This document shows positions 3,340 through 13,518 of a stretch of DNA of 64,000 nt, one piece after another; position 1 is the stretch's first letter; every line of letters begins with the position of its first letter. The DNA is from Patescibacteria group bacterium (GTDB lineage: Bacteria > Patescibacteriota > Minisyncoccia > Phycocordibacterales > UBA9973). Made by a program: the position numbers and the translations under genes. Where the stretch lies: NCBI GenBank assembly GCA_040388575.1, contig JAZKBO010000002.1, positions 95,942-159,941 of the forward strand. The letters are read 5' to 3'. The notes beneath the pieces were generated by a model, which was given only the letters and a program-made list of their open reading frames with translations, made no database searches and was not told the origin of the DNA.

Positions 3340-5802
3340 CTAGGAGTTTTTCTTACGAAGTAGGTATGTAGATCCAAGTAGTGTGATAAGTCCCGATAGT
3401 GCAAGTACAAGTATGTTCATTGCTACGTCGCCGCTGCCGGTGCGAGGTAAGCCAACTTCAGCACCGAGGACTTCTCCAGCTGGTGCAGCTGCTAGCTGTC
3501 CGCCGCCGACACCCTGCACATCTGAATCACCTAACACATCTCCATTATTGTTGTTACTTGATCCACCATGATGACCTCCGCCGCCTCCACCACCACCATT
3601 GCCGTTGTCGGTAGTATCTTCAGTTAATATATTACTTATTACACACTTTTCATTCCAAACTATAATATATTGATCAGACGTAATATTTGTAAGTGCTGGA
3701 GCAGTATTAGTTTGAGATGCAGCTTCTGCAAATGCTTGAGTTGCGCCTGTGCTATAGCCAACTAATCGGAACTTACCTTCTACACATGTACCTCCGATAG
3801 GGAGAACATTACTCGTATTGTCTGTGATCTCGCTCGTAGTGTAGGCAGATCCGGTGGCCATGGCAGCAGTATCAGCGCCATATAAGTCTGCAGCGCCGCC
3901 GAAATTTTCACCAAGGGTGTATGTACCTGTACCTTGTACACCGCCTCCTATATTGGAAGCAGTCCAAGTAGCTGTCATTGGGAAATCATATCCGCTTGCT
4001 GAAGTATCAGTAGCCAATGATCCATCTAGATATTTAAGAACATGAATTTTTACGGTTTCATCACCAAGGACTTGTCCGCAAAGTTTATTTACAACTATTA
4101 TGAATTTATTTGAAGTAATATTTGTCAGGCTAGCAGTGGAAACTGTAGCAGAGGCTAGTGCCAAAGCCTCAGTATCCCCGATTTTATAACCCTCTACCAT
4201 ATATTGGCCTTGATTATTGGCAGTGCATGATGTAGCTACATTATTTTCTGAAGTACTGTAATTAGATCCGGAAGGCATTAGCGCAGTAGTAGCTTCATAT
4301 GCATCTGGATTATTAAATCCTGTTGATCCCAGGTTGAAGTCGCCTTCACCTCCTGGATACACAGCATGCATAGAGAATGTGGCATTGGTGGTATTTACTG
4401 TGGAGGCATGACTAAGCCCGTTAGCGTCGATGAATTTTTCAATTGTTACAGTAACGTCTGCCGGTGGCGGAGTTACACATTCGTTGTTATTGATTGAGAG
4501 TTTGTATAGCAATCCTGCAGGGTTACTAGATGCATCTTGCGGGAAATCAGCGTGGCCGGCACCATGTACCCAGTTGGTTGCTGTGATTTCTATCGTGTTG
4601 GATCCTGTGTGTAACTGCGGAAGTACATTATATGTTTGCTGAGCAGCAAAAGTATTTCCGTTCACTGTTTCGGAGCCAACTGTAATTCCATTAACTTTCG
4701 CAACATAGGTATTATCAGCAGCTATTTCCAGCGATCCACTTGTAGGGGTACCAACAATGTTGAATGTTTTTGTAAACACCTTGGTAAGGTCATTGCCATC
4801 TGGAAATTGTACTGGGTTAGTTGCCCAGATCCATAATGCAGACGGGATGCTTGCAGTCCAGGCTGGATGAATAAATGAAAGTAGCGCAGCATTGTGGCTA
4901 TCAACCTGGGTGCTAGCGTCACTCATAATTGTGCTCGAAGCATTTATATTACAACCTCCGCCTTCATCCGGAATGCACTCTTCACCCACTAAATGAGTTC
5001 CAGCTGGACACTGTGTAGGTGGAGGTGTGCACATATTACCTTGATTGAAAACATCTCCGTAGTATAAAGTAAAACCTTCAGGGAATGGAACGTTCCAATT
5101 TAGAACTCCGTCTTTGTAGAGGTCAATTTGATATGAACAATTAGGAACATTTATCTGGAAAGTAAGTGAACTACATGGAGGAATAGTTAGTGTTTGGTGG
5201 TCGAAAAGTGTCTGAGTAGTCAGCCATGTGCCATGAGGGTCAAAGTTGGGATCATTAGGAGTATAAGGAGAATATGTTTGATACGATCCAAATGTCACTG
5301 TGATAGCGGCATCTCCCCCATTATGAAATTCTGCATTTGCAGTGCCGTCACCTCCTGTGCCATTGTCCGTAACTGAGCCTCCCGTGCCAGAGATATCACA
5401 TCCCAATGGTCCTGGAGGTGTACATTGATTTAAATTAGTTTGAATTCCTGCAATATCGGGACAGACATCATCACTATTACATGGACCTGATGGCTGTACT
5501 CCTGGATCAGTATCTTCATTTGGGCACGCATCTACTACTTGAGTAATAGGTGCATTGTCTACACACCAGCCATCCTTATCTTCTATCTCACCGCCTGTAT
5601 AAAGAAAATCTCCATGTCCTAGGTGGGCATCGAGTGAAGGTCCTGCGGGAGTATCCATGTATTGCCAGCTTGGCCCAGTTTTGTGGCAGATACTTATTTT
5701 ATTGTTACTATCATTTTCTGCCTGGGCAACTAATGCCATTGTTGTCACTATTATTGCGAACATGACCACTGGCGCTATAAACTTAAATACAATTTTTTTC
5801 AT
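3340..5802 (-). CDS. Large secreted surface protein with C-terminal LPXTG-type sorting signal (LPRTG + TM + RKKNS); Gly/His-rich low-complexity tract; internal tandem domain repeats
   Basis: The C-terminus LPRTGSGDVAMNILVLALSGLITLLGSTYLLRKKNS is a canonical sortase sorting signal. The likely true start is MKKIVFKFIAPVVMFAIIVTTMALVAQA (signal peptide) at about 5802, not the ORF-track start 5913. There is a Cys-rich N-terminal region and the run GNGGGGGGGGHHGGSSNNNNG. The segment ...TNITSNKFIIVVNKLC repeats as ...TNITSDQYIIVWNEKC. Confidence 0.75.
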   Translation of the reverse strand: MKKIVFKFIAPVVMFAIIVTTMALVAQAENDSNNKISICHKTGPSWQYMDTPAGPSLDAHLGHGDFLYTGGEIEDKDGWCVDNAPITQVVDACPNEDTDPGVQPSGPCNSDDVCPDIAGIQTNLNQCTPPGPLGCDISGTGGSVTDNGTGGDGTANAEFHNGGDAAITVTFGSYQTYSPYTPNDPNFDPHGTWLTTQTLFDHQTLTIPPCSSLTFQINVPNCSYQIDLYKDGVLNWNVPFPEGFTLYYGDVFNQGNMCTPPPTQCPAGTHLVGEECIPDEGGGCNINASSTIMSDASTQVDSHNAALLSFIHPAWTASIPSALWIWATNPVQFPDGNDLTKVFTKTFNIVGTPTSGSLEIAADNTYVAKVNGITVGSETVNGNTFAAQQTYNVLPQLHTGSNTIEITATNWVHGAGHADFPQDASSNPAGLLYKLSINNNECVTPPPADVTVTIEKFIDANGLSHASTVNTTNATFSMHAVYPGGEGDFNLGSTGFNNPDAYEATTALMPSGSNYSTSENNVATSCTANNQGQYMVEGYKIGDTEALALASATVSTASLTNITSNKFIIVVNKLCGQVLGDETVKIHVLKYLDGSLATDTSASGYDFPMTATWTASNIGGGVQGTGTYTLGENFGGAADLYGADTAAMATGSAYTTSEITDNTSNVLPIGGTCVEGKFRLVGYSTGATQAFAEAASQTNTAPALTNITSDQYIIVWNEKCVISNILTEDTTDNGNGGGGGGGGHHGGSSNNNNGDVLGDSDVQGVGGGQLAAAPAGEVLGAEVGLPRTGSGDVAMNILVLALSGLITLLGSTYLLRKKNS

Positions 5803-7340: not shown

Positions 7341-8624
7341 TTAGTGTTTACCTGCGTGTGGATTTGCTTGAACGTAGCTCACACACTGACCCTGATTCTT
7401 AAATGTTGGGCTGGTGAATGACTTCCATCCATCTGCCCTACATTGATCCTTGTCAGTTGGTGCACCTGATGTGGTATCAGCTGCAAAGTTCGCGGTAACA
7501 GATATGTTCGCTTGAACATTAGTATCTGTTCTTGGATTTGCAGTTGAGGCGTCAGACCAATTAACGAAGTGATAACCTGCATTACCTACTGCAGTTACAG
7601 CTGTACCATTAGCACCTTGGTTTACAGTTTGTGGGGATGTGCCGGAAATAGTTCCGTTGGCACCAGCGGTGTAAGTCAAGGTGTATTGGGTGACAGTATT
7701 AGGAGAGGTAGTGAAATTCAATTCCGCACCTGGATACCATGTACCCCCTACATTGGACCATGCTACAAAGTAGTAAGTCGTGTTTGGAGTAACTGCAGGC
7801 ATATTACTTGGAACTCCGCTTGTCGTAAGTGAAGATAGCAAAGCAGAGAAAGCAGTATTTCCAGCTATAGCACCCATGTCAGGAGTTGAGTAAACTCCAG
7901 CTGGGATACTTGGACTAGCAGTACTGAACGGACTTGTGGAAACCCAGAATGAGTGACCGACAGCTGCATTAGGCCCATTGGTACCATTTAGTGTTGCATC
8001 AGTTGAAGTTATGCCAGTTGCGGGATTAGTTGTAACATTGTCAGCAACTACACTTCCTAAATGAATGTTGCTCACTGTCCATGAGCCCGCATCATCAGCA
8101 ATAATAAACGGTACATCGGTACTGACTTTATATGTTGGAAAAGCTGCAACGAATGCTGCCCAGCCAGTATAACCACCAACGTCTCCACCTGTGATGAATA
8201 TTTTACAGTTAGGGTCATTGATAGGATCTACAAGATTACTTCCGCTAGTGCAGAGATTTGCGCCAATGAATGCATAAACATCAGTCGTACCATTTGCATC
8301 AGTGTCTATTGGAAGACTGATTCTTGGTGAGCCAGCCGTAGGGGTGCCAGTATAAGTAAACGAGAGCTGATCTGTACCCACTTGAGCAAGAGTCTTGCCG
8401 GTTAGAGTACTTGTAGGCGTATAAACTCCAGAGTAAGAGCCATCAGGGTCCCCACCAGAATTATCTAGTGTGGCAGTGCCTGCAGCTATTGAACAATTAC
8501 CGCCGTAGATGGTAACGTCAGAAACTCCACTAAAACATGTTAATGGATTTGGCGCAGCGTTGACTGAAAATGCAAAGCCTAAAGCGATAAGGGTAGCTAT
8601 TGATAATAGAGTTAATTTTTTCAT
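7341..8624 (-). CDS. Secreted Ser/Thr/Gly-rich surface protein with C-terminal Flg_new (Listeria-Bacteroides/InlB B-type) repeat
   Basis: Signal peptide MKKLTLLSIATLIALGFAFSVNA. The segment YTLTYTAGANGTISGTSPQTVNQGANGTAVTAVGNAGYHFVNWSD fits the Flg_new repeat pattern (Y.v.fdangG......v..G......P.r.GY.F.gW). Confidence 0.6.
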   Translation of the reverse strand: MKKLTLLSIATLIALGFAFSVNAAPNPLTCFSGVSDVTIYGGNCSIAAGTATLDNSGGDPDGSYSGVYTPTSTLTGKTLAQVGTDQLSFTYTGTPTAGSPRISLPIDTDANGTTDVYAFIGANLCTSGSNLVDPINDPNCKIFITGGDVGGYTGWAAFVAAFPTYKVSTDVPFIIADDAGSWTVSNIHLGSVVADNVTTNPATGITSTDATLNGTNGPNAAVGHSFWVSTSPFSTASPSIPAGVYSTPDMGAIAGNTAFSALLSSLTTSGVPSNMPAVTPNTTYYFVAWSNVGGTWYPGAELNFTTSPNTVTQYTLTYTAGANGTISGTSPQTVNQGANGTAVTAVGNAGYHFVNWSDASTANPRTDTNVQANISVTANFAADTTSGAPTDKDQCRADGWKSFTSPTFKNQGQCVSYVQANPHAGKH

Positions 8625-8763
8625 AATATTTTTCTTGATTAAGTTAATAATTAATAATGATAAATTTTAATAATGTCATTTAAGATCTGTAAGCCAAACA
8701 ATCGCCATAATTGGCCTCATAAACTAAGACGAAATTAAGGCGGTATTATTGCAGAACTAGGCA

Positions 8764-8792
8764 TTGTCAGTTAGAAATTTATGTAGTATAAT
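8764..8792 (+). promoter_or_regulatory. Sigma70-like promoter TTGTCA-N17-TATAAT with ATG 9 nt downstream (leaderless-type)
   Basis: TTGTCA (8764-8769), 17-nt spacer, TATAAT (8787-8792). The core 'ATGTAGTATAATCT' is identical to the promoter at 38140-38168. Confidence 0.5.
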
Positions 8793-8801
8793 CTGTTTTT
8801 T

Positions 8802-9200
8802 ATGGAGCTAATTGATAAAAAATCCTGGTATAAGAAAAAAAGGTATATTATTCCTGTAATTGCCCTAAGTTTAATACTTTTTTTTGGGTCAAATAATGGT
8901 TCAAGTCCTCAAGTAAAATCTGAGTCTATACCTATTCCATCTTATGGCAGTAATGTTCCATTATATGAATCTACTAATACTGTAAATTTAAATACAAATT
9001 CGTTTTCACCTACTCCATCAAGTGCTCTTTCAAATGATAATTACTACACAAACGTAAATGGTAATTCAGTTCACTCACCTGCATATTCTAATTCCGTACC
9101 ACAAGGAGCATCAGCTCGGTGCGGAGACGGCACATACAGCTATAGTCAACATCGAAGTGGAACATGTTCACATCACGGCGGCGTTTCCGAGTGGTTATAA
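8802..9200 (+). CDS. Membrane-anchored protein with C-terminal DUF3761-like Cys/His domain
   Basis: N-terminal TM (IIPVIALSLILFF) followed by an S/T/N-rich linker. The C-terminal ARCGDGTYSYSQHRSGTCSHHGGVSEWL matches the DUF3761 signature from memory. Confidence 0.5.
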   Translation: MELIDKKSWYKKKRYIIPVIALSLILFFGSNNGSSPQVKSESIPIPSYGSNVPLYESTNTVNLNTNSFSPTPSSALSNDNYYTNVNGNSVHSPAYSNSVPQGASARCGDGTYSYSQHRSGTCSHHGGVSEWL

Positions 9201-9212
9201 TGTCATGAGGAA

Positions 9213-9272
9213 TTAACCAACTAATGCTCCGATACCAACAATAAACAAGATATAACCTAAAAAGTTTTTCAT
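9213..9272 (-). CDS. Tiny hydrophobic peptide (19 aa, MKNFLGYILFIVGIGALVG), last cistron of AT-rich island operon
   Basis: Hand-translated; below the ORF-track size cutoff. The start lies 2 nt after the preceding cistron's stop. Single TM-like segment. Confidence 0.2.
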   Translation of the reverse strand: MKNFLGYILFIVGIGALVG

Positions 9273-9274
9273 AT

Positions 9275-9448
9275 TTATTCAGATTTATCTTTTTTAATCA
9301 AGTTAATGATTTCAATCTGCTTTCCTAAAATAAAAGCAAGAATTAACATCACGAGTCCTTCAAAACCTCTATTATCTCCAATAATAAAATACGAAAGAAT
9401 TAAAACTATTATTGTCCAAACCCATGGATTCTCATTCCAATTTTTCAT
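9275..9448 (-). CDS. Small 2-TM membrane peptide (57 aa, MKNWNENPWVWTIIVLILSYFIIGDNRGFEGLVMLILAFILGKQIEIINLIKKDKSE)
   Basis: Hand-translated. Its ATG overlaps the upstream cistron's TGA stop (ATGA overlap at 9445-9448). It has two hydrophobic helices. Confidence 0.35.
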   Translation of the reverse strand: MKNWNENPWVWTIIVLILSYFIIGDNRGFEGLVMLILAFILGKQIEIINLIKKDKSE

Positions 9449-9834
9449 ATAATTTTACTCAAAAAATCCTTACCTAATAAATATTTAAAACGTTTGTTAA
9501 TCTCATTTATTTGAACTAACTTTTCATTTATTTGGGATAAAATATATTCTTTATTTGATTTTCTTAGATTAATTACATCATTTATTATGATTAAATAATC
9601 ATACCAATCAGACTTAATTTGTTCTGACCATGTATTATCATGTTTAAATCTCTCCTTAAGTCTAATAAAATTTTGCCTACCGCTGTTAAACAATAGCTCT
9701 TCTTCGACTACTTCAACTCCAGTTAGCTTTTTCGAAATAAAAACCTCCATAATTATTATCTTTTTGTTGTTTTTTCCTAAAAGTAAATTTTTTAGTTTCA
9801 GGATTATTCCATTATAAATTGATAGTTTTTCCAT
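9445..9834 (-). CDS. Hypothetical protein (129 aa; alternative start MEVFISKK...), AT-rich island
   Basis: ORF in a very AT-rich segment, translationally coupled to neighbours. No recognisable motif. Confidence 0.4.
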   Translation of the reverse strand: MEKLSIYNGIILKLKNLLLGKNNKKIIIMEVFISKKLTGVEVVEEELLFNSGRQNFIRLKERFKHDNTWSEQIKSDWYDYLIIINDVINLRKSNKEYILSQINEKLVQINEINKRFKYLLGKDFLSKII

Positions 9835-9848
9835 AATTATTATTGTTA

Positions 9849-10391
9849 TTATCTCTTCTTTCCTATAAATGCTGGCTGCTTATTTTTCTTTGCTTCAATT
9901 ATATTGCTCATATTTGCGTTAGGTATGAAATTTATTCTTTCCGAAGAAGGCATCCTAAAGGATAGGGCGGTTTTACCGTTATAAGTGGTAACAGCAAAAT
10001 CACCCATACTAATGATATCCATACCAATTAGTAATTGAGGCTGTTCTTCTTCTTTTTGATTATCATCTGGAATGAGCTTTACCTCAGAAACGCGAACTCC
10101 CTCAAATAGAACTTTATTTGGTAAAGATATACTAACTAGATAGGTATTAACCAAGGATTTCCCATCAGCATGACGACTTTCTGCTATTCCAGATGGCGAT
10201 AATTTTAAATTATTAACAACTTTTTTTGTAATTGCAGAATTTGTTGCTCCAGTATCCCAAATTGCATTATATTCCTTAAAAATTGGAGGGTTATTTAATC
10301 TTTCCTGAGGTGTAGAGGGAACACAAACCCCAACTTTAGTGTAAAGGACTCTTGCTCTACCACTATAATCTGTAGTAAAAGCATGTTTCAT
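9849..10391 (-). CDS. Retropepsin-like (clan AA, DTGA-type) aspartic protease, soluble
   Basis: Active-site block YNAIWDTGATNSAI (hydrophobic-hydrophobic-D-T-G-A) and a downstream LLIGMDII block (the retropepsin 'ILGrD.L' motif). The likely start is MKHAFTTDYSG at about 10391, which overlaps the upstream small ORF's end. Confidence 0.65.
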   Translation of the reverse strand: MKHAFTTDYSGRARVLYTKVGVCVPSTPQERLNNPPIFKEYNAIWDTGATNSAITKKVVNNLKLSPSGIAESRHADGKSLVNTYLVSISLPNKVLFEGVRVSEVKLIPDDNQKEEEQPQLLIGMDIISMGDFAVTTYNGKTALSFRMPSSERINFIPNANMSNIIEAKKNKQPAFIGKKR

Positions 10392-10395
10392 AAAG

Positions 10396-10647
10396 CTAGA
10401 AGAGAGAAACTCTTGAATGAAAAGTTTGAGTGTAGCTTTCCTCACCAGGTAGGCATTTTTGAATAAGAAAAGTCCCTAATTCAAATTTTGCTTTAGCATC
10501 GATATAGGCTTCTATCTCTGAGTTATAAACTCCTTGTATCTTCTTATCTTTGATAACAAGAAATTTACCCCCATGTTGTTTTACAAGGTCTTCTTGATTG
10601 TCTTTAAAATATTCAAGTTCCTGCTCAAGATGTTTATTAATCACCAT
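10396..10647 (-). CDS. Small cytosolic protein (83 aa), possibly DUF5678-like; first cistron of island operon
   Basis: Pattern ...QHGGKFLVIKDKKIQGVYNSEIEAYIDAKAKF...FLIQKC resembles the small GKWVAI.DgKVv..gd..eE...a DUF5678-type fold (recollection, low certainty). Its 3' end overlaps the protease start. Confidence 0.45.
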   Translation of the reverse strand: MVINKHLEQELEYFKDNQEDLVKQHGGKFLVIKDKKIQGVYNSEIEAYIDAKAKFELGTFLIQKCLPGEESYTQTFHSRVSLF

Positions 10648-10822
10648 GTAATATTAACATATATTTATTAGCATTTCAATTCATCTCTGGCGATAAGAAA
10701 TATAGCAAACATTGCCCGCTTAGGCATATTTTATATTTTTTAAGGCATTAAAACTCCCAAAGACCCAGCTTTCTAACTGCCACCCCTATGAGATAATATG
10801 TCCACTAAATTTCTTAGCACAA

Positions 10823-10851
10823 AAAAAGCCCCGTGTGGGGCTTTTTTTGGT
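10823..10851 (-). terminator. Rho-independent terminator (A7-GCCCC-GTGT-GGGGC-T7)
   Basis: 5-bp GC stem with flanking A/T runs, 12-40 nt downstream of the minus-strand stop at 10863. Confidence 0.6.
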
Positions 10852-10862
10852 TCGAATTAAGT

Positions 10863-11450
10863 TTAGTTATCGTCTCCAGAACCGGAGCCGGATCCAGAGT
10901 TGTCGTCACCTCCTCTTGAGCCATGCATACCGTCCAATCTTGGAGGCATTATGCCCATGAAGCCACGATGGCCTTCACGATTTTGCTTCATCATGTCATT
11001 ACCTTCTGGAGCATCCTGATCATCTGGGATACCATCGGCATCCTTATCAGGCTTGTGGCCCCAAGCGCGTAGGATCCGCGCAGTAATGATAAAGTCCCCG
11101 TCCTTGGAAATACTACCTATTACACCCACAACATCATCCGCCTTAAAATCTGAAATAGACTTTGTAGCGCTCAAGATATTTGTAGAAGATGTAGTTTCAA
11201 TTGTCCAACTACCGCCCCAACTCTTTACTACAAGAGAGTTCGCGCTAGTGTCAATAGAAACAACTTTACCTCGGAGCATTACATTACCCTTCGGACCAAT
11301 ATTGATCATCATTGGGCTTGGATTTACACCCAAACTTCCTGATGCAGTAACAGCATTGCTTATCGTAGTCGAATTATTTTCAGCAAACACCACAGCCGCA
11401 CCTAGTACCACTACCAAAACTGTGAGACTTAAAACTAAGTATTTTTTCAT
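10863..11450 (-). CDS. Secreted protein with acidic Ca-binding-like DxDxDGxxD motif and Gly/Ser/Asp-rich tail
   Basis: Signal peptide MKKYLVLSLTVLVVVLGAAVVFA. DKDADGIPDDQDAPEGND resembles thrombospondin-type-3/EF-like calcium motifs. C-terminal GGDDNSGSGSGSGDDN. Confidence 0.45.
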   Translation of the reverse strand: MKKYLVLSLTVLVVVLGAAVVFAENNSTTISNAVTASGSLGVNPSPMMINIGPKGNVMLRGKVVSIDTSANSLVVKSWGGSWTIETTSSTNILSATKSISDFKADDVVGVIGSISKDGDFIITARILRAWGHKPDKDADGIPDDQDAPEGNDMMKQNREGHRGFMGIMPPRLDGMHGSRGGDDNSGSGSGSGDDN

Positions 11451-11555: not shown

Positions 11556-13244
11556 TTAGCTTTGGAAATATTCTGGGGTATTTACTGACATCCAGTCCAG
11601 GAGCTGGCGCATGACGGTGGAGGCATTTACACTGTTGGTGGTGGGCCCAGACTCCATCATTATAGTAAAGGCGTATTTCGGGTTTTCATATGGCAAGAAG
11701 CCCATCACCCAGGAATTAACTTTATTCTTCAGCGCACCCACCTGGGCAGTTCCAGTTTTAACTGCCACATTCACATAAGGAACATTGAGGGCTGACGCCG
11801 TACCTGCCGTCACTGCTTGTCGCATACCCTCTCGCACTATTTGAAAATATTCTTTATTCATATCAATGGCTGTTGTTTTTCCTTCCATTGTTTTGTCGTT
11901 AAGTATGAAATGTGGAGTCATGAGTGTGCCAGAGTTAGCAATTGCTCCGGCTGCTCGCGCCATTTCCATCGGCGTTACTTGGAAGCCATACTGGCCGATG
12001 GCGGTATGGTAAGTGTCCCCAATACGCCACGCGTCCCCATTAAAATTTTTCAACTTCCACTCAGGGGTCGGTATCGTGCCATTGGTTTCATCTGGTAAAT
12101 CTACACCTGTCTCTGTGCCGAGTCCAAAAAGGCGCGCATATTTTTCAATATTTAAAATTCCCAAGCCTTTCTGATCCTGATAGCCACCACCGATAGAATA
12201 AAAATAGACATCCGAGGATACTGCTATTGCCTGCCGCATGTCAGTCCAACCATTAGCCCGCCAGTCCTTGAAGACAGTCTTCTGGCCCGGGAGGAATGGG
12301 TTAGGGATGGATATAGAGCCCGTAGAGAGTATCTGTTTCTTGGGGTCGATAATGTTCTCTGCCAAGGCACCTAGGGCCACGAAGGGCTTCACGATGGAGC
12401 CAGGAGTATACAGGCCCGAGATGGTACGGTCCAGATACACCTTCCGCTTGTCGGTGTTGTAGCCACTAATTACAGCGCTATCCTTGCCCAAGGAAAGGGT
12501 TTCAGAGTTGTATTCAGGGTAACTAGTAGAGGCTAGTACTTCACCATTTTGTACGTTCATTATAACTCCAGCGCCGCCGGAAAAGGAAAAGTTATCGGCT
12601 AAATTTTTAATAATACTGAATAACTCACCTTGGACCTTCGCATCAACTGTAGTTACCAGGTCCTGACCGCGAGCCGGCGCATTCACAATATTTTCAGAAT
12701 GGACGGAATCGTGCGCATCAACTTCAATAATTTTAGAGCCATTCTCACCTTTTACCACATCATTGTATTGTTTTTCGAGGCCATCTTTTCCCACAAATTC
12801 AGTTTGCCAATAATTACCTGACTTATCTTTCGCTGGGTAACTCACATAGCCCAGTAAATGTGAAAAGCCAGGTGTTTTATAGGCGCGCATCCTGAAACCA
12901 TCCTCCTCATCTTTGTTCCAAACGAGTTCTACCTTGTTACGGTCATAGATAATGCCTCTGTCAGCGAAGATCAAGCTTTTTTCTAGGATATTATTTTCAC
13001 TCCTATTGTAGTAAGCATTTCCGGAAGCGATTTGAAGATAACCCAGGCGAATAAAGAAAATTAAGATTAATGATCCGCAGATAATTCCGAGTACACCGAT
13101 GGTTTTCTTGGTAATAGGCTTTTCGATGCGGCCCTCGAATTGCTGGCGGTCAAAATTTTGAATATTTTTTGAATCCAGGAATATTTCATCCGGCTCCACC
13201 ATCATATTTTGTCTTTTTCTTTTTTTAAATATTCTTACGATCAT
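11556..13244 (-). CDS. Class B penicillin-binding protein (PBP2/FtsI-type peptidoglycan transpeptidase)
   Basis: N-terminal TM. The three transpeptidase motifs are present: SxxK (GSIVKP), SxN-like (SSD in AVSSDVYFY) and KTG (KTGTAQ). The start is probably MIVRIFKK (about 13244) or MMVEPDE, not 13292. Confidence 0.85.
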   Translation of the reverse strand: MIVRIFKKRKRQNMMVEPDEIFLDSKNIQNFDRQQFEGRIEKPITKKTIGVLGIICGSLILIFFIRLGYLQIASGNAYYNRSENNILEKSLIFADRGIIYDRNKVELVWNKDEEDGFRMRAYKTPGFSHLLGYVSYPAKDKSGNYWQTEFVGKDGLEKQYNDVVKGENGSKIIEVDAHDSVHSENIVNAPARGQDLVTTVDAKVQGELFSIIKNLADNFSFSGGAGVIMNVQNGEVLASTSYPEYNSETLSLGKDSAVISGYNTDKRKVYLDRTISGLYTPGSIVKPFVALGALAENIIDPKKQILSTGSISIPNPFLPGQKTVFKDWRANGWTDMRQAIAVSSDVYFYSIGGGYQDQKGLGILNIEKYARLFGLGTETGVDLPDETNGTIPTPEWKLKNFNGDAWRIGDTYHTAIGQYGFQVTPMEMARAAGAIANSGTLMTPHFILNDKTMEGKTTAIDMNKEYFQIVREGMRQAVTAGTASALNVPYVNVAVKTGTAQVGALKNKVNSWVMGFLPYENPKYAFTIMMESGPTTNSVNASTVMRQLLDWMSVNTPEYFQS

Positions 13245-13248
13245 AAAA

Positions 13249-13518
13249 TTATATTTGCGGATAGAACTTGAGCTTTCTTTTAAGAAATTCAATTAATACT
13301 ATGGCGATGACAGCCATTATGAATGATACATAGGTCAAGCCCCAGAATTTAGCTTCAGGCGTGCCATATATCAGGTCAGAAAGGAGGAAAAGTGCCACTC
13401 CCTCCCAATAGACACGAAAATATAGCATTGCTATTAGGGCTAGAATAACAGGGAGCCAAAAAGGCAGGAAAAGTATAGAAATAAGTAGCACAGCTCCGGC
13501 AATGATTCGAAGTATCAT
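13249..13518 (-). CDS. Small 3-TM membrane protein immediately upstream of the PBP gene (MreD-like position, unverified)
   Basis: 89-aa hydrophobic ORF on the same strand, abutting the PBP gene. No diagnostic motif. Confidence 0.3.
   Translation of the reverse strand: MILRIIAGAVLLISILFLPFWLPVILALIAMLYFRVYWEGVALFLLSDLIYGTPEAKFWGLTYVSFIMAVIAIVLIEFLKRKLKFYPQI

Follow-up and report, generated by a model that had tools for sequence, protein, structure and literature searches.

A DUF5678-retropepsin gene pair, predicted to be mobile and possibly toxin-antitoxin-like, in a probably composite AT-rich islet of a Patescibacteria chromosome

Do five small open reading frames (ORFs) packed on one strand of an AT-rich islet constitute one functional system, or is the islet an assembly of unrelated modules? 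The islet lies in a stretch of 64,000 nt of a Patescibacteria chromosome (contig JAZKBO010000002.1), referred to below as the window, and all its coordinates are positions in that window. The initial annotation, made from the sequence, described positions 9201-10650 as a tightly coupled five-cistron operon around a retropepsin-type aspartic protease. It offered three candidate functions: a toxin-antitoxin (TA) or abortive-infection (Abi) module, a cluster resembling those for bacteriocins or ribosomally synthesized and post-translationally modified peptides (RiPPs), and a membrane-peptide toxin with the protease as its regulator. The five minus-strand ORFs are present as described, with respect to both coordinates and junction spacing:

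10396-10647, minus strand: p83, 83 aa, a small soluble DUF5678-like protein
9849-10391, minus strand: p180, 180 aa from the ATG, a retropepsin-like aspartic protease
9445-9834, minus strand: p129, 129 aa, a predicted all-helical soluble protein of a sparse unnamed family
9275-9448, minus strand: p57, 57 aa, a plausible orphan small membrane protein
9213-9272, minus strand: p19, 19 aa, a hydrophobic ORF whose coding status is unsupported

In this order, 4 nt separate p83 from p180 and 14 nt separate p180 from p129; the p57 start codon overlaps the p129 stop (ATGA), and p19 follows p57 after 2 nt. The architecture is very probably that of a two-gene cassette, p83 and p180, accompanied by unrelated cargo, and the suggestion that this is not a housekeeping arrangement was borne out.

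The pairing of p83 and p180 was examined in two scans. The cellular scan used one genome per species and gave 408 matches, of which 80 loci were kept and examined for pairing; the viral scan of IMG/VR gave 150 viral contigs with matches, 80 of which were kept. A p83 homologue is found immediately upstream of the protease gene, on the same strand, in 80/80 cellular loci and in 79/80 viral loci, the single exception lying at a contig edge, so that 159/160 loci are paired overall. The reciprocal search, started from p83, found the protease downstream in 15 of 17 viral loci; one of the two unpaired p83-like loci is cut by the contig end and the other has a 44-aa protease remnant. The median distance from one gene to the other is 3 nt; it stays within +/-20 nt in 93% of cases, and the frames overlap in 26% (n = 139). 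Moreover, pairwise distances in the two families correlate (r = 0.71, Mantel 0/999), a correlation to which shared descent contributes. Comparison of these loci shows p83 and p180 as a two-gene unit that is inherited as a strict pair and is apparently translationally coupled, with p83 as the predicted obligate partner of p180. The only degraded cassettes seen, both on viral contigs, keep the small gene and lose the protease: at L187 (2468-2873) the p83-like gene is intact and the protease is reduced to the 44-aa N-terminal remnant, and at L190 the protease match is truncated, as in a decayed cassette.

Another Patescibacteria genome (L001, 3165-5561) carries three tandem pairs of a small and a large gene:

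first pair: DUF5678, 64 aa, with Asp_protease_2, 140 aa
second pair: 79 aa with 215 aa, no family
third pair: the orthologous DUF5678, 82 aa, with the protease, 186 aa

These tandem pairs look like an array of TA-like cassettes. Since L001 holds a second, divergent DUF5678 + Asp_protease_2 pair, the association of DUF5678 with retropepsins reaches beyond one subfamily.

p180 carries the motifs IWDTGAT, with D46 as the predicted catalytic residue, and LLIGMDII, and scores above the gathering thresholds of two Pfam families in profile hidden Markov model searches, Asp_protease_2 (PF13650; 29.4 bits, threshold 24.3) and gag-asp_proteas (PF13975; 29.2 bits, threshold 28.2). Its D-T-G-A and LIGMD motifs show no variation among 21 close homologues, and over 78 loci their conservation is at least 90%. 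The clan-AA active site read by the initial annotation is thus real, and p180 is predicted to be a genuine clan-AA retropepsin-type enzyme. Its start is the ATG at 10391 rather than an upstream GTG, because 20 homologues align from that methionine. The protein is basic (pI 9.5) and single-domain, and since it has one DTGA motif, it is presumably active as a homodimer, like retropepsins, whose need for dimerisation has been restated (PMC12239564). No 19-residue hydropathy window reaches the transmembrane (TM) level, in agreement with the soluble protease originally described, nor is there a hydrophobic N-terminal segment. Detectable homologues number 2163, most of them in Patescibacteria at 55-75% identity, and a profile search against solved structures returned no significant relative of p180. 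The protein is not a member of NCBIfam TIGR03698 (clan_AA_DTGF), for which it scores 22.2 bits against a cut-off of 57.35. Like p180, TIGR03698 proteins and the archaeal CRISPR-associated Saci_1895 group (PMC3973734) are free-standing retropepsin domains, some at defence loci; indeed, small retropepsin-domain proteins are associated with archaeal type III CRISPR loci (PMC3973734). The Saci_1895 proteins, however, have about 100 aa, p180 being some 80 residues longer, and no CRISPR-cas genes are found near p180. More generally, prokaryotic single-domain clan-AA peptidases have been catalogued and little is known about them (PMC2642776).

Some protease orthologues (L032, 3983-4570; P0061) end in a SEC-C-like cysteine motif, GRNDPCPCGSAKS, which matches the C-termini of the PADLOC models PDC-S12 and E2. 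One p180 homologue carries the public name 'SEC-C motif domain protein'. The tail of p180 in the window is basic and without cysteines.

On its own, p83 scores below the gathering threshold of Pfam DUF5678 (PF18929; 15.1 bits against 23.2). Positional orthologues of p83, by contrast, score 25.9, 24.3, 28.6 and 31.0 bits for DUF5678, and several homologues carry a precomputed DUF5678 domain; 527 homologues are detectable, mostly in Patescibacteria at 55-75% identity. The AlphaFold2 (AF2) model of p83 has a mean predicted local distance difference test score (pLDDT) of 80.4 and has a beta-beta-alpha-beta core, with a helical hairpin at the N-terminus and a low-confidence tail at the C-terminus, where pLDDT goes from 55 to 40. 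Its best matches in BFVD are proteins named DUF5678 domain-containing (TM-score 0.68, E 2e-4, prob 1.00), and from orthologue scores and predicted fold p83 is classed as a divergent DUF5678 protein. The model has no significant match to solved folds, and profile searches of solved structures with p83, and with a DUF5678 orthologue, gave nothing significant. The top structural matches of p83 come from Pandoraviruses, which are giant viruses infecting amoebae; they are DUF5678 proteins and uncharacterised ones, some of which form parts of longer proteins of 145-245 aa.

The C-terminal tail of p83 is strongly conserved (LGTFL.Q.C.PG..SYTQTFHSRV), and across phyla the most conserved part of the protein is the stretch SYTQTFHSRV, with S78 and R79 at least 90% conserved. 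The best-conserved part of p83 therefore coincides with the lowest-confidence part of its model, as would be expected of a segment that folds on a partner. p83 is acidic (pI 5.9) and has no 19-residue hydropathy window at TM level. Pfam scans of p83 and its orthologues detected no helix-turn-helix (HTH), ribbon-helix-helix (RHH) or AbrB family. Eukaryotic Ddi1, which has a ubiquitin-like and a retropepsin domain, offers a partial likeness to the pair: it is a non-viral retropepsin homodimer of the cytosol, and a small alpha/beta domain precedes its protease on the N-terminal side.

The distribution of the pair points to mobility. The 408 matches in species-representative genomes span at least 15 phyla, among them Patescibacteria, Chloroflexota, Omnitrophota, Planctomycetota, Bacteroidota, Verrucomicrobiota, Acidobacteriota and Nitrospirota. 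Flavobacterium, Tamlana and Aquimarina isolates (L048, L058) are among the carriers. The 150 immediate neighbours at cellular loci fall into 182 Pfam families, none of which occurs more than three times, and are mostly housekeeping genes. The gene after the protease varies in strand, distance and size among the 80 cellular loci, neighbours are equally varied in viral loci, and no third gene is conserved beside the pair. On viral contigs the neighbours are integrases, endolysins/amidases, repressors and anti-repressors, along with DNA methyltransferases and a HicB antitoxin, gene classes typical of the lysogeny, lysis and accessory regions of temperate phages. Furthermore, in 66/75 loci the GC of the cassette falls below that of the flanking DNA, by 8 points on average (p = 2e-12), and the cassette is present in Leptospira LE1-type phages. 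Judged by its distribution, composition and changing surroundings, p83-p180 is best described as a self-contained, horizontally mobile accessory cassette. In one LE1-type phage locus (L173, KF114879.1, 72891-73385) the protease ORF is unannotated and the preceding 80-aa DUF5678-like ORF annotated; the cassette in the LE1-type phage adjoins the portal gene. At another locus (L175, 4562-8275) the cassette is followed by two overlapping genes of 94 and 95 aa and then by a 515-aa serine recombinase.

We propose that the island is a composite, horizontally acquired islet, probably one transcription unit, assembled from unrelated accessory modules. Module A would be the mobile p83-p180 cassette, in which a cytosolic retropepsin-type protease is encoded after a small DUF5678 protein; module B would be p129, probably with p57, as separate cargo from a sparse family of phage and mobile-element contexts. 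Within the cassette, p83 and p180 would form a complex in which the C-terminal tail of p83, disordered when alone, lies in the substrate cleft of the homodimeric protease or controls access to it, the DUF5678 tail serving as a cleft-blocking pseudo-substrate. p83 would be the neutralising or specificity-giving partner and the protease the effector, following the logic of type II TA or Abi systems: if the partner were lost or titrated, for example upon phage infection or once the element is gone, the protease would be free to cut cellular or phage targets. Control of the protease by the DUF5678 protein is suggested by four features, namely, the order of the genes, in which the small one precedes the protease gene, the charges of the two products, the conserved low-confidence tail and the retention of the small gene in decayed copies. 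Homologues of the protease are for the most part basic (pI 7.0-9.6); those of the partner have pI values between 5.3 and 9.5, with about half below 6.2.

Taken as a whole, the statement that this is a composite, horizontally acquired islet with a TA-like protease/partner core is one towards which we lean. The TA-like mechanism considered by itself is more tentative, a serious possibility that we would not call probable. The most far-reaching version is rather unlikely, namely, an unrecognised TA/Abi class in which an aspartic protease effector of the retrovirus type is held by a DUF5678 pseudo-substrate tail and is spread by phages over at least 15 phyla, with DUF5678 relatives in giant viruses. 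The TA/Abi-like module of the initial annotation was a reasonable candidate, but it was built on the wrong partners, the conserved partner being the upstream p83.

Several observations count against the proposed islet and its TA-like core. Most type II antitoxins carry a DNA-binding domain, and none is recognisable in p83. Any obligate two-subunit function would likewise produce the strict linkage and the mirror-tree correlation. PADLOC-DB v2 gives the protease only weak PDC-M08B matches (E 0.003-0.03, 12-16 bits). No cassette copy is found among PLSDB plasmids, and IMG/VR contigs may include the host flanks of prophages. Finally, the five ORFs are probably co-transcribed as one unit, a reading taken from their spacing only.

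The pair shares several features with type II TA modules (PMC2701414). Both consist of two small co-directional genes, the smaller first, with overlapping or abutting frames; both are patchy across phyla, occur in prophages and have variable neighbourhoods; some genomes hold more than one pair, and decayed copies retain the small gene. The difference lies in the components, since the presumed effector here is a clan-AA aspartic protease and its partner has no HTH, RHH or AbrB domain. The 2009 survey of type II TA systems by Makarova, Wolf and Koonin (PMC2701414) has no aspartic or aspartyl protease among its toxins. PADLOC-DB v2 yielded nothing for p83, p129 or p57 and no known defence model was matched, and a PHROGs scan gave no match for the cistrons. 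Literature searches found no published description of a DUF5678-retropepsin pair, and the searchable literature contained one mention of DUF5678, an unrelated one. We therefore file the pair as a TA-like two-gene mobile module that is new in its combination of effector and partner, its proteins belonging to existing uncharacterised Pfam families.

The same pairing could reflect a protease-substrate switch of the ImmA/ImmR type, in which the retropepsin cleaves a DUF5678 regulator or pro-protein on a signal, perhaps in the tail, neither product being toxic; the switch would control the life cycle of a mobile element or release an active fragment. Strict pairing and coupling of both genes would be expected of such a device, cleavage could take place in the hydrophobic and aromatic TQTF-HSRV stretch of the invariant tail, repressors, anti-repressors and integrases are found close to viral copies, and protease-repressor pairs are established in mobile elements (COG2856-Xre, PMC2701414). 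Indeed, in ImmA/ImmR-type (COG2856-Xre) systems, too, a protease gene is strictly coupled to a small partner and located in prophages or integrative elements. However, ImmA is a zinc metalloprotease with an HTH-repressor partner, whereas the protease here is aspartic and p83 has neither an HTH nor another DNA-binding domain. Moreover, most cellular copies lie amid housekeeping genes, with no element to regulate. On this evidence we regard the switch as unlikely.

Less probable still is an obligate two-subunit enzyme, in which the DUF5678 protein would either bring substrates to the retropepsin as an adaptor or activate it, much as the partners of RimB or ClpS act, the pair conferring a niche-specific benefit with no role in addiction or defence. 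The linkage and mirror-tree data accommodate it, as stated above. RimB and RloA of Pseudomonas (PMC11957791, PMC12239564), the characterised bacterial retropepsin-like enzymes, are single-domain DTG proteases that form homodimers and are encoded in small operons with partners that shape their activity. They pair with ATP-grasp proteins, RimB working with RimK (PMC11957791) and RloA with RloC, whereas the partner here is DUF5678 and the genes form a mobile cassette that phages also carry. Among the 150 cellular neighbours no ATP-grasp family is recurrent, and none is present in the window island. RloA proteases are also secreted (PMC12239564), unlike p180 with its lack of a hydrophobic N-terminal or TM segment.

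What, then, are the three ORFs downstream of the cassette? p129 is a real protein-coding gene, because its ratio of nonsynonymous to synonymous substitution (dN/dS) is 0.19 against its sole close homologue (60% identity), which follows a PG_binding_1 gene and not a protease. An exhaustive HMMER search found 20 distant relatives that share a helical domain (NF.RL.ERFKHD ... EI.KRF..LLG). Most of them have an N-terminal TM helix; the window copy is without it, and no 19-residue window of p129 reaches TM level in hydropathy. p129 belongs to no Pfam family, and its AF2 model (pLDDT 87.5) has five helices and matches generic helical bundles only. The relatives for which context is available sit in mobile settings: L089, L090 and one locus beside MqsA/RelE. 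L089 is a 3.9-kb contig with a rolling-circle Rep, on which the p129 homologue (3808-3909) has a 237-aa membrane protein on one side and the N-terminus of a resolvase on the other. L090 (5001-6031; also L091) resembles the lysogeny region of a phage and contains HTH repressors, Phage_rep_O and an M78 peptidase of the ImmA type; the p129 homologue there adjoins the ImmA-type (COG2856-Xre) protease-repressor pair. The gene after this distant homologue overlaps it by 4 nt and encodes a 136-aa N-terminally anchored protein that starts MKNQSYTWIVIAVVILIGG, the MKN of which resembles the start of p57, MKNWNENPWVWTIIVLIL. Given this 4-nt overlap and the MKN membrane protein, p129 and p57 may form a pair of their own. 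Within p129, a 14-nt context on the coding strand, ATAATAATTATGGA, occurs identically at 9746-9759 and 9830-9843, so that Met1 and the in-frame Met29 share it; the two may represent two alternative starts; the p129 homologue in L004 also has a methionine at the second start position.

The two terminal hydrophobic peptides of the initial annotation fare differently. An ORF as long as p57 arises in 0.8% of dinucleotide shuffles of the region (P = 0.008), p57 has two hydrophobic segments by hydropathy, and public annotations of this contig list it as a gene. It is thus a plausible orphan membrane protein. For p19, by contrast, length gives no support, as an ORF of at least 19 codons arises in 54% of dinucleotide shuffles; its hydrophobicity, in the top 2% of window ORFs of similar size, is the sole point in its favour, and p19 is probably not a gene. 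Shine-Dalgarno evidence is uninformative for the small ORFs, because only 4/36 long window ORFs have a Shine-Dalgarno-like core. Neither p57 nor p19 has a protein-level relative by tblastn in the 80 related loci, and none was found for p57 in a metagenome scan, whose two matches were rejected as spurious, both amounting to 12 shared residues (NRGFEGLVMLIL) within a high-GC membrane protein of 381 aa.

Could the five cistrons still be one system, with a free retropepsin that processes or regulates downstream membrane peptides, either as regulator of a toxin or in a bacteriocin/RiPP-like cluster? The ORFs follow one another on one strand too closely for a terminator to fit (gaps of 14 and 2 nt and the ATGA overlap), p57 is hydrophobic and longer than expected by chance, and the p129 homologue in L090 is likewise overlapped by 4 nt by the gene for an MKN-starting anchored membrane protein. 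The expected synteny is nonetheless absent. tblastn found no relative of p129, p57 or p19 in the 80 bacterial loci, and when all five products were searched against 86 loci these three were recovered only in copies of the same contig, so that five-gene synteny was rejected; by the refuting conditions set in the initial annotation itself, the three downstream ORFs fall outside the system. The variable genes after the protease in cellular and viral loci, the close p129 homologue behind a PG_binding_1 gene, the division of the island into two composition classes and the lack of statistical support for p19 all argue in the same direction. A protease regulating a membrane-peptide toxin finds no support in p57 and p19, which have no relatives in the loci searched; a RiPP or bacteriocin-like cluster finds no modifying enzyme, transporter, immunity or precursor-like family in Pfam, NCBIfam, PADLOC or PHROGs, and its peptides are not conserved. 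The single five-cistron system, which absent synteny appears already to have largely refuted, is thus highly improbable, and p129, p57 and p19 are best regarded as lineage-specific cargo unrelated to the cassette. Of the operon initially described, probable co-transcription stands and a conserved unit does not, p83 and p180 being the only linked genes. Tight packing of ORFs in an AT-rich islet is therefore not evidence of a functional operon.

The islet is AT-rich as first described, 9201-10650 having 29.8% GC against a window mean of 41.4% (sd 2.7, windows of equal size) and ranking 5/1251, among the five lowest windows of that size; no other region of the 64 kb is lower in GC. Its extent, however, is wider than reported: low GC continues over about 8500-10750 and also takes in a convergent DUF3761 gene, and this stretch contains two GC classes, 33-34% in p83/p180 and 24-28% in p129/p57/p19. 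The features around the ORFs are as follows:

10820-10850, minus strand: A-tract, 13-bp hairpin and T-tract, predicted intrinsic terminator of the upstream gene 10863-11450
10648-10819, minus strand: untranslated spacer, which would have to hold the promoter of the transcription unit
10863-11450, minus strand: gene for a 195-aa protein with a hydrophobic N-terminus and a Gly/Ser/Asp-rich tail, no Pfam family, predicted to be secreted
11556-13292, minus strand: ORF of 578 aa that, from sequence reading alone, reads like a penicillin-binding protein
7341-8624, minus strand: gene for a 427-aa surface protein with a Flg_new_2 repeat

The terminator that the initial annotation placed at 10823-10851 is a real hairpin, with a folding energy of -19.8 kcal/mol (z = -5.09; equally stable shuffles 0/200), but it would end the upstream gene and not the operon. 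Read along the coding strand, it comes before the operon and immediately past the 10863-11450 stop codon, and would therefore terminate that gene and insulate the 5' side of the island transcription unit. In the spacer, a consensus scan gave TTGAAA-17-TAATAT with an upstream TG (10679-10651) as the best promoter-like match, very near the p83 start codon; promoter-like sites are no more numerous there than in shuffles, and the match carries no statistical weight. At the 3' end of the operon no terminator was detected. The p19 stop lies 12 nt from that of the convergent DUF3761 gene (8802-9200, plus strand), so the two transcription units must overlap or share an undetected terminator. The DUF3761 gene (91 bits, N-terminal TM segment, GC 36%) is inside the same low-GC stretch, and the genes flanking the island are cell-envelope genes. 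An Rfam scan of the island gave no family at the gathering threshold, no tRNA lies near it, the repeats flanking it are AT-rich low-complexity matches only, with no insertion scar, and a second copy of the cassette was not found within the window.

Free-standing retropepsin-like proteases are common in prokaryotes and few have been studied, namely, RimB, RloA and, reportedly, APRc, in differing settings. The cassette adds a large protease subfamily that is always paired with DUF5678 and appears to travel as a mobile cassette, phages included. It also carries a lesson for annotation, in that the packing of ORFs in an AT-rich islet does not by itself reveal what functions together. Both a DUF family and an orphan protease family thereby gain a testable hypothesis, that of a protease/partner module for addiction or defence. 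If the hypothesis is true, an aspartic protease would join the known toxin and defence effectors, and the finding would be relevant to the prokaryotic ancestry of the retroviral protease fold.

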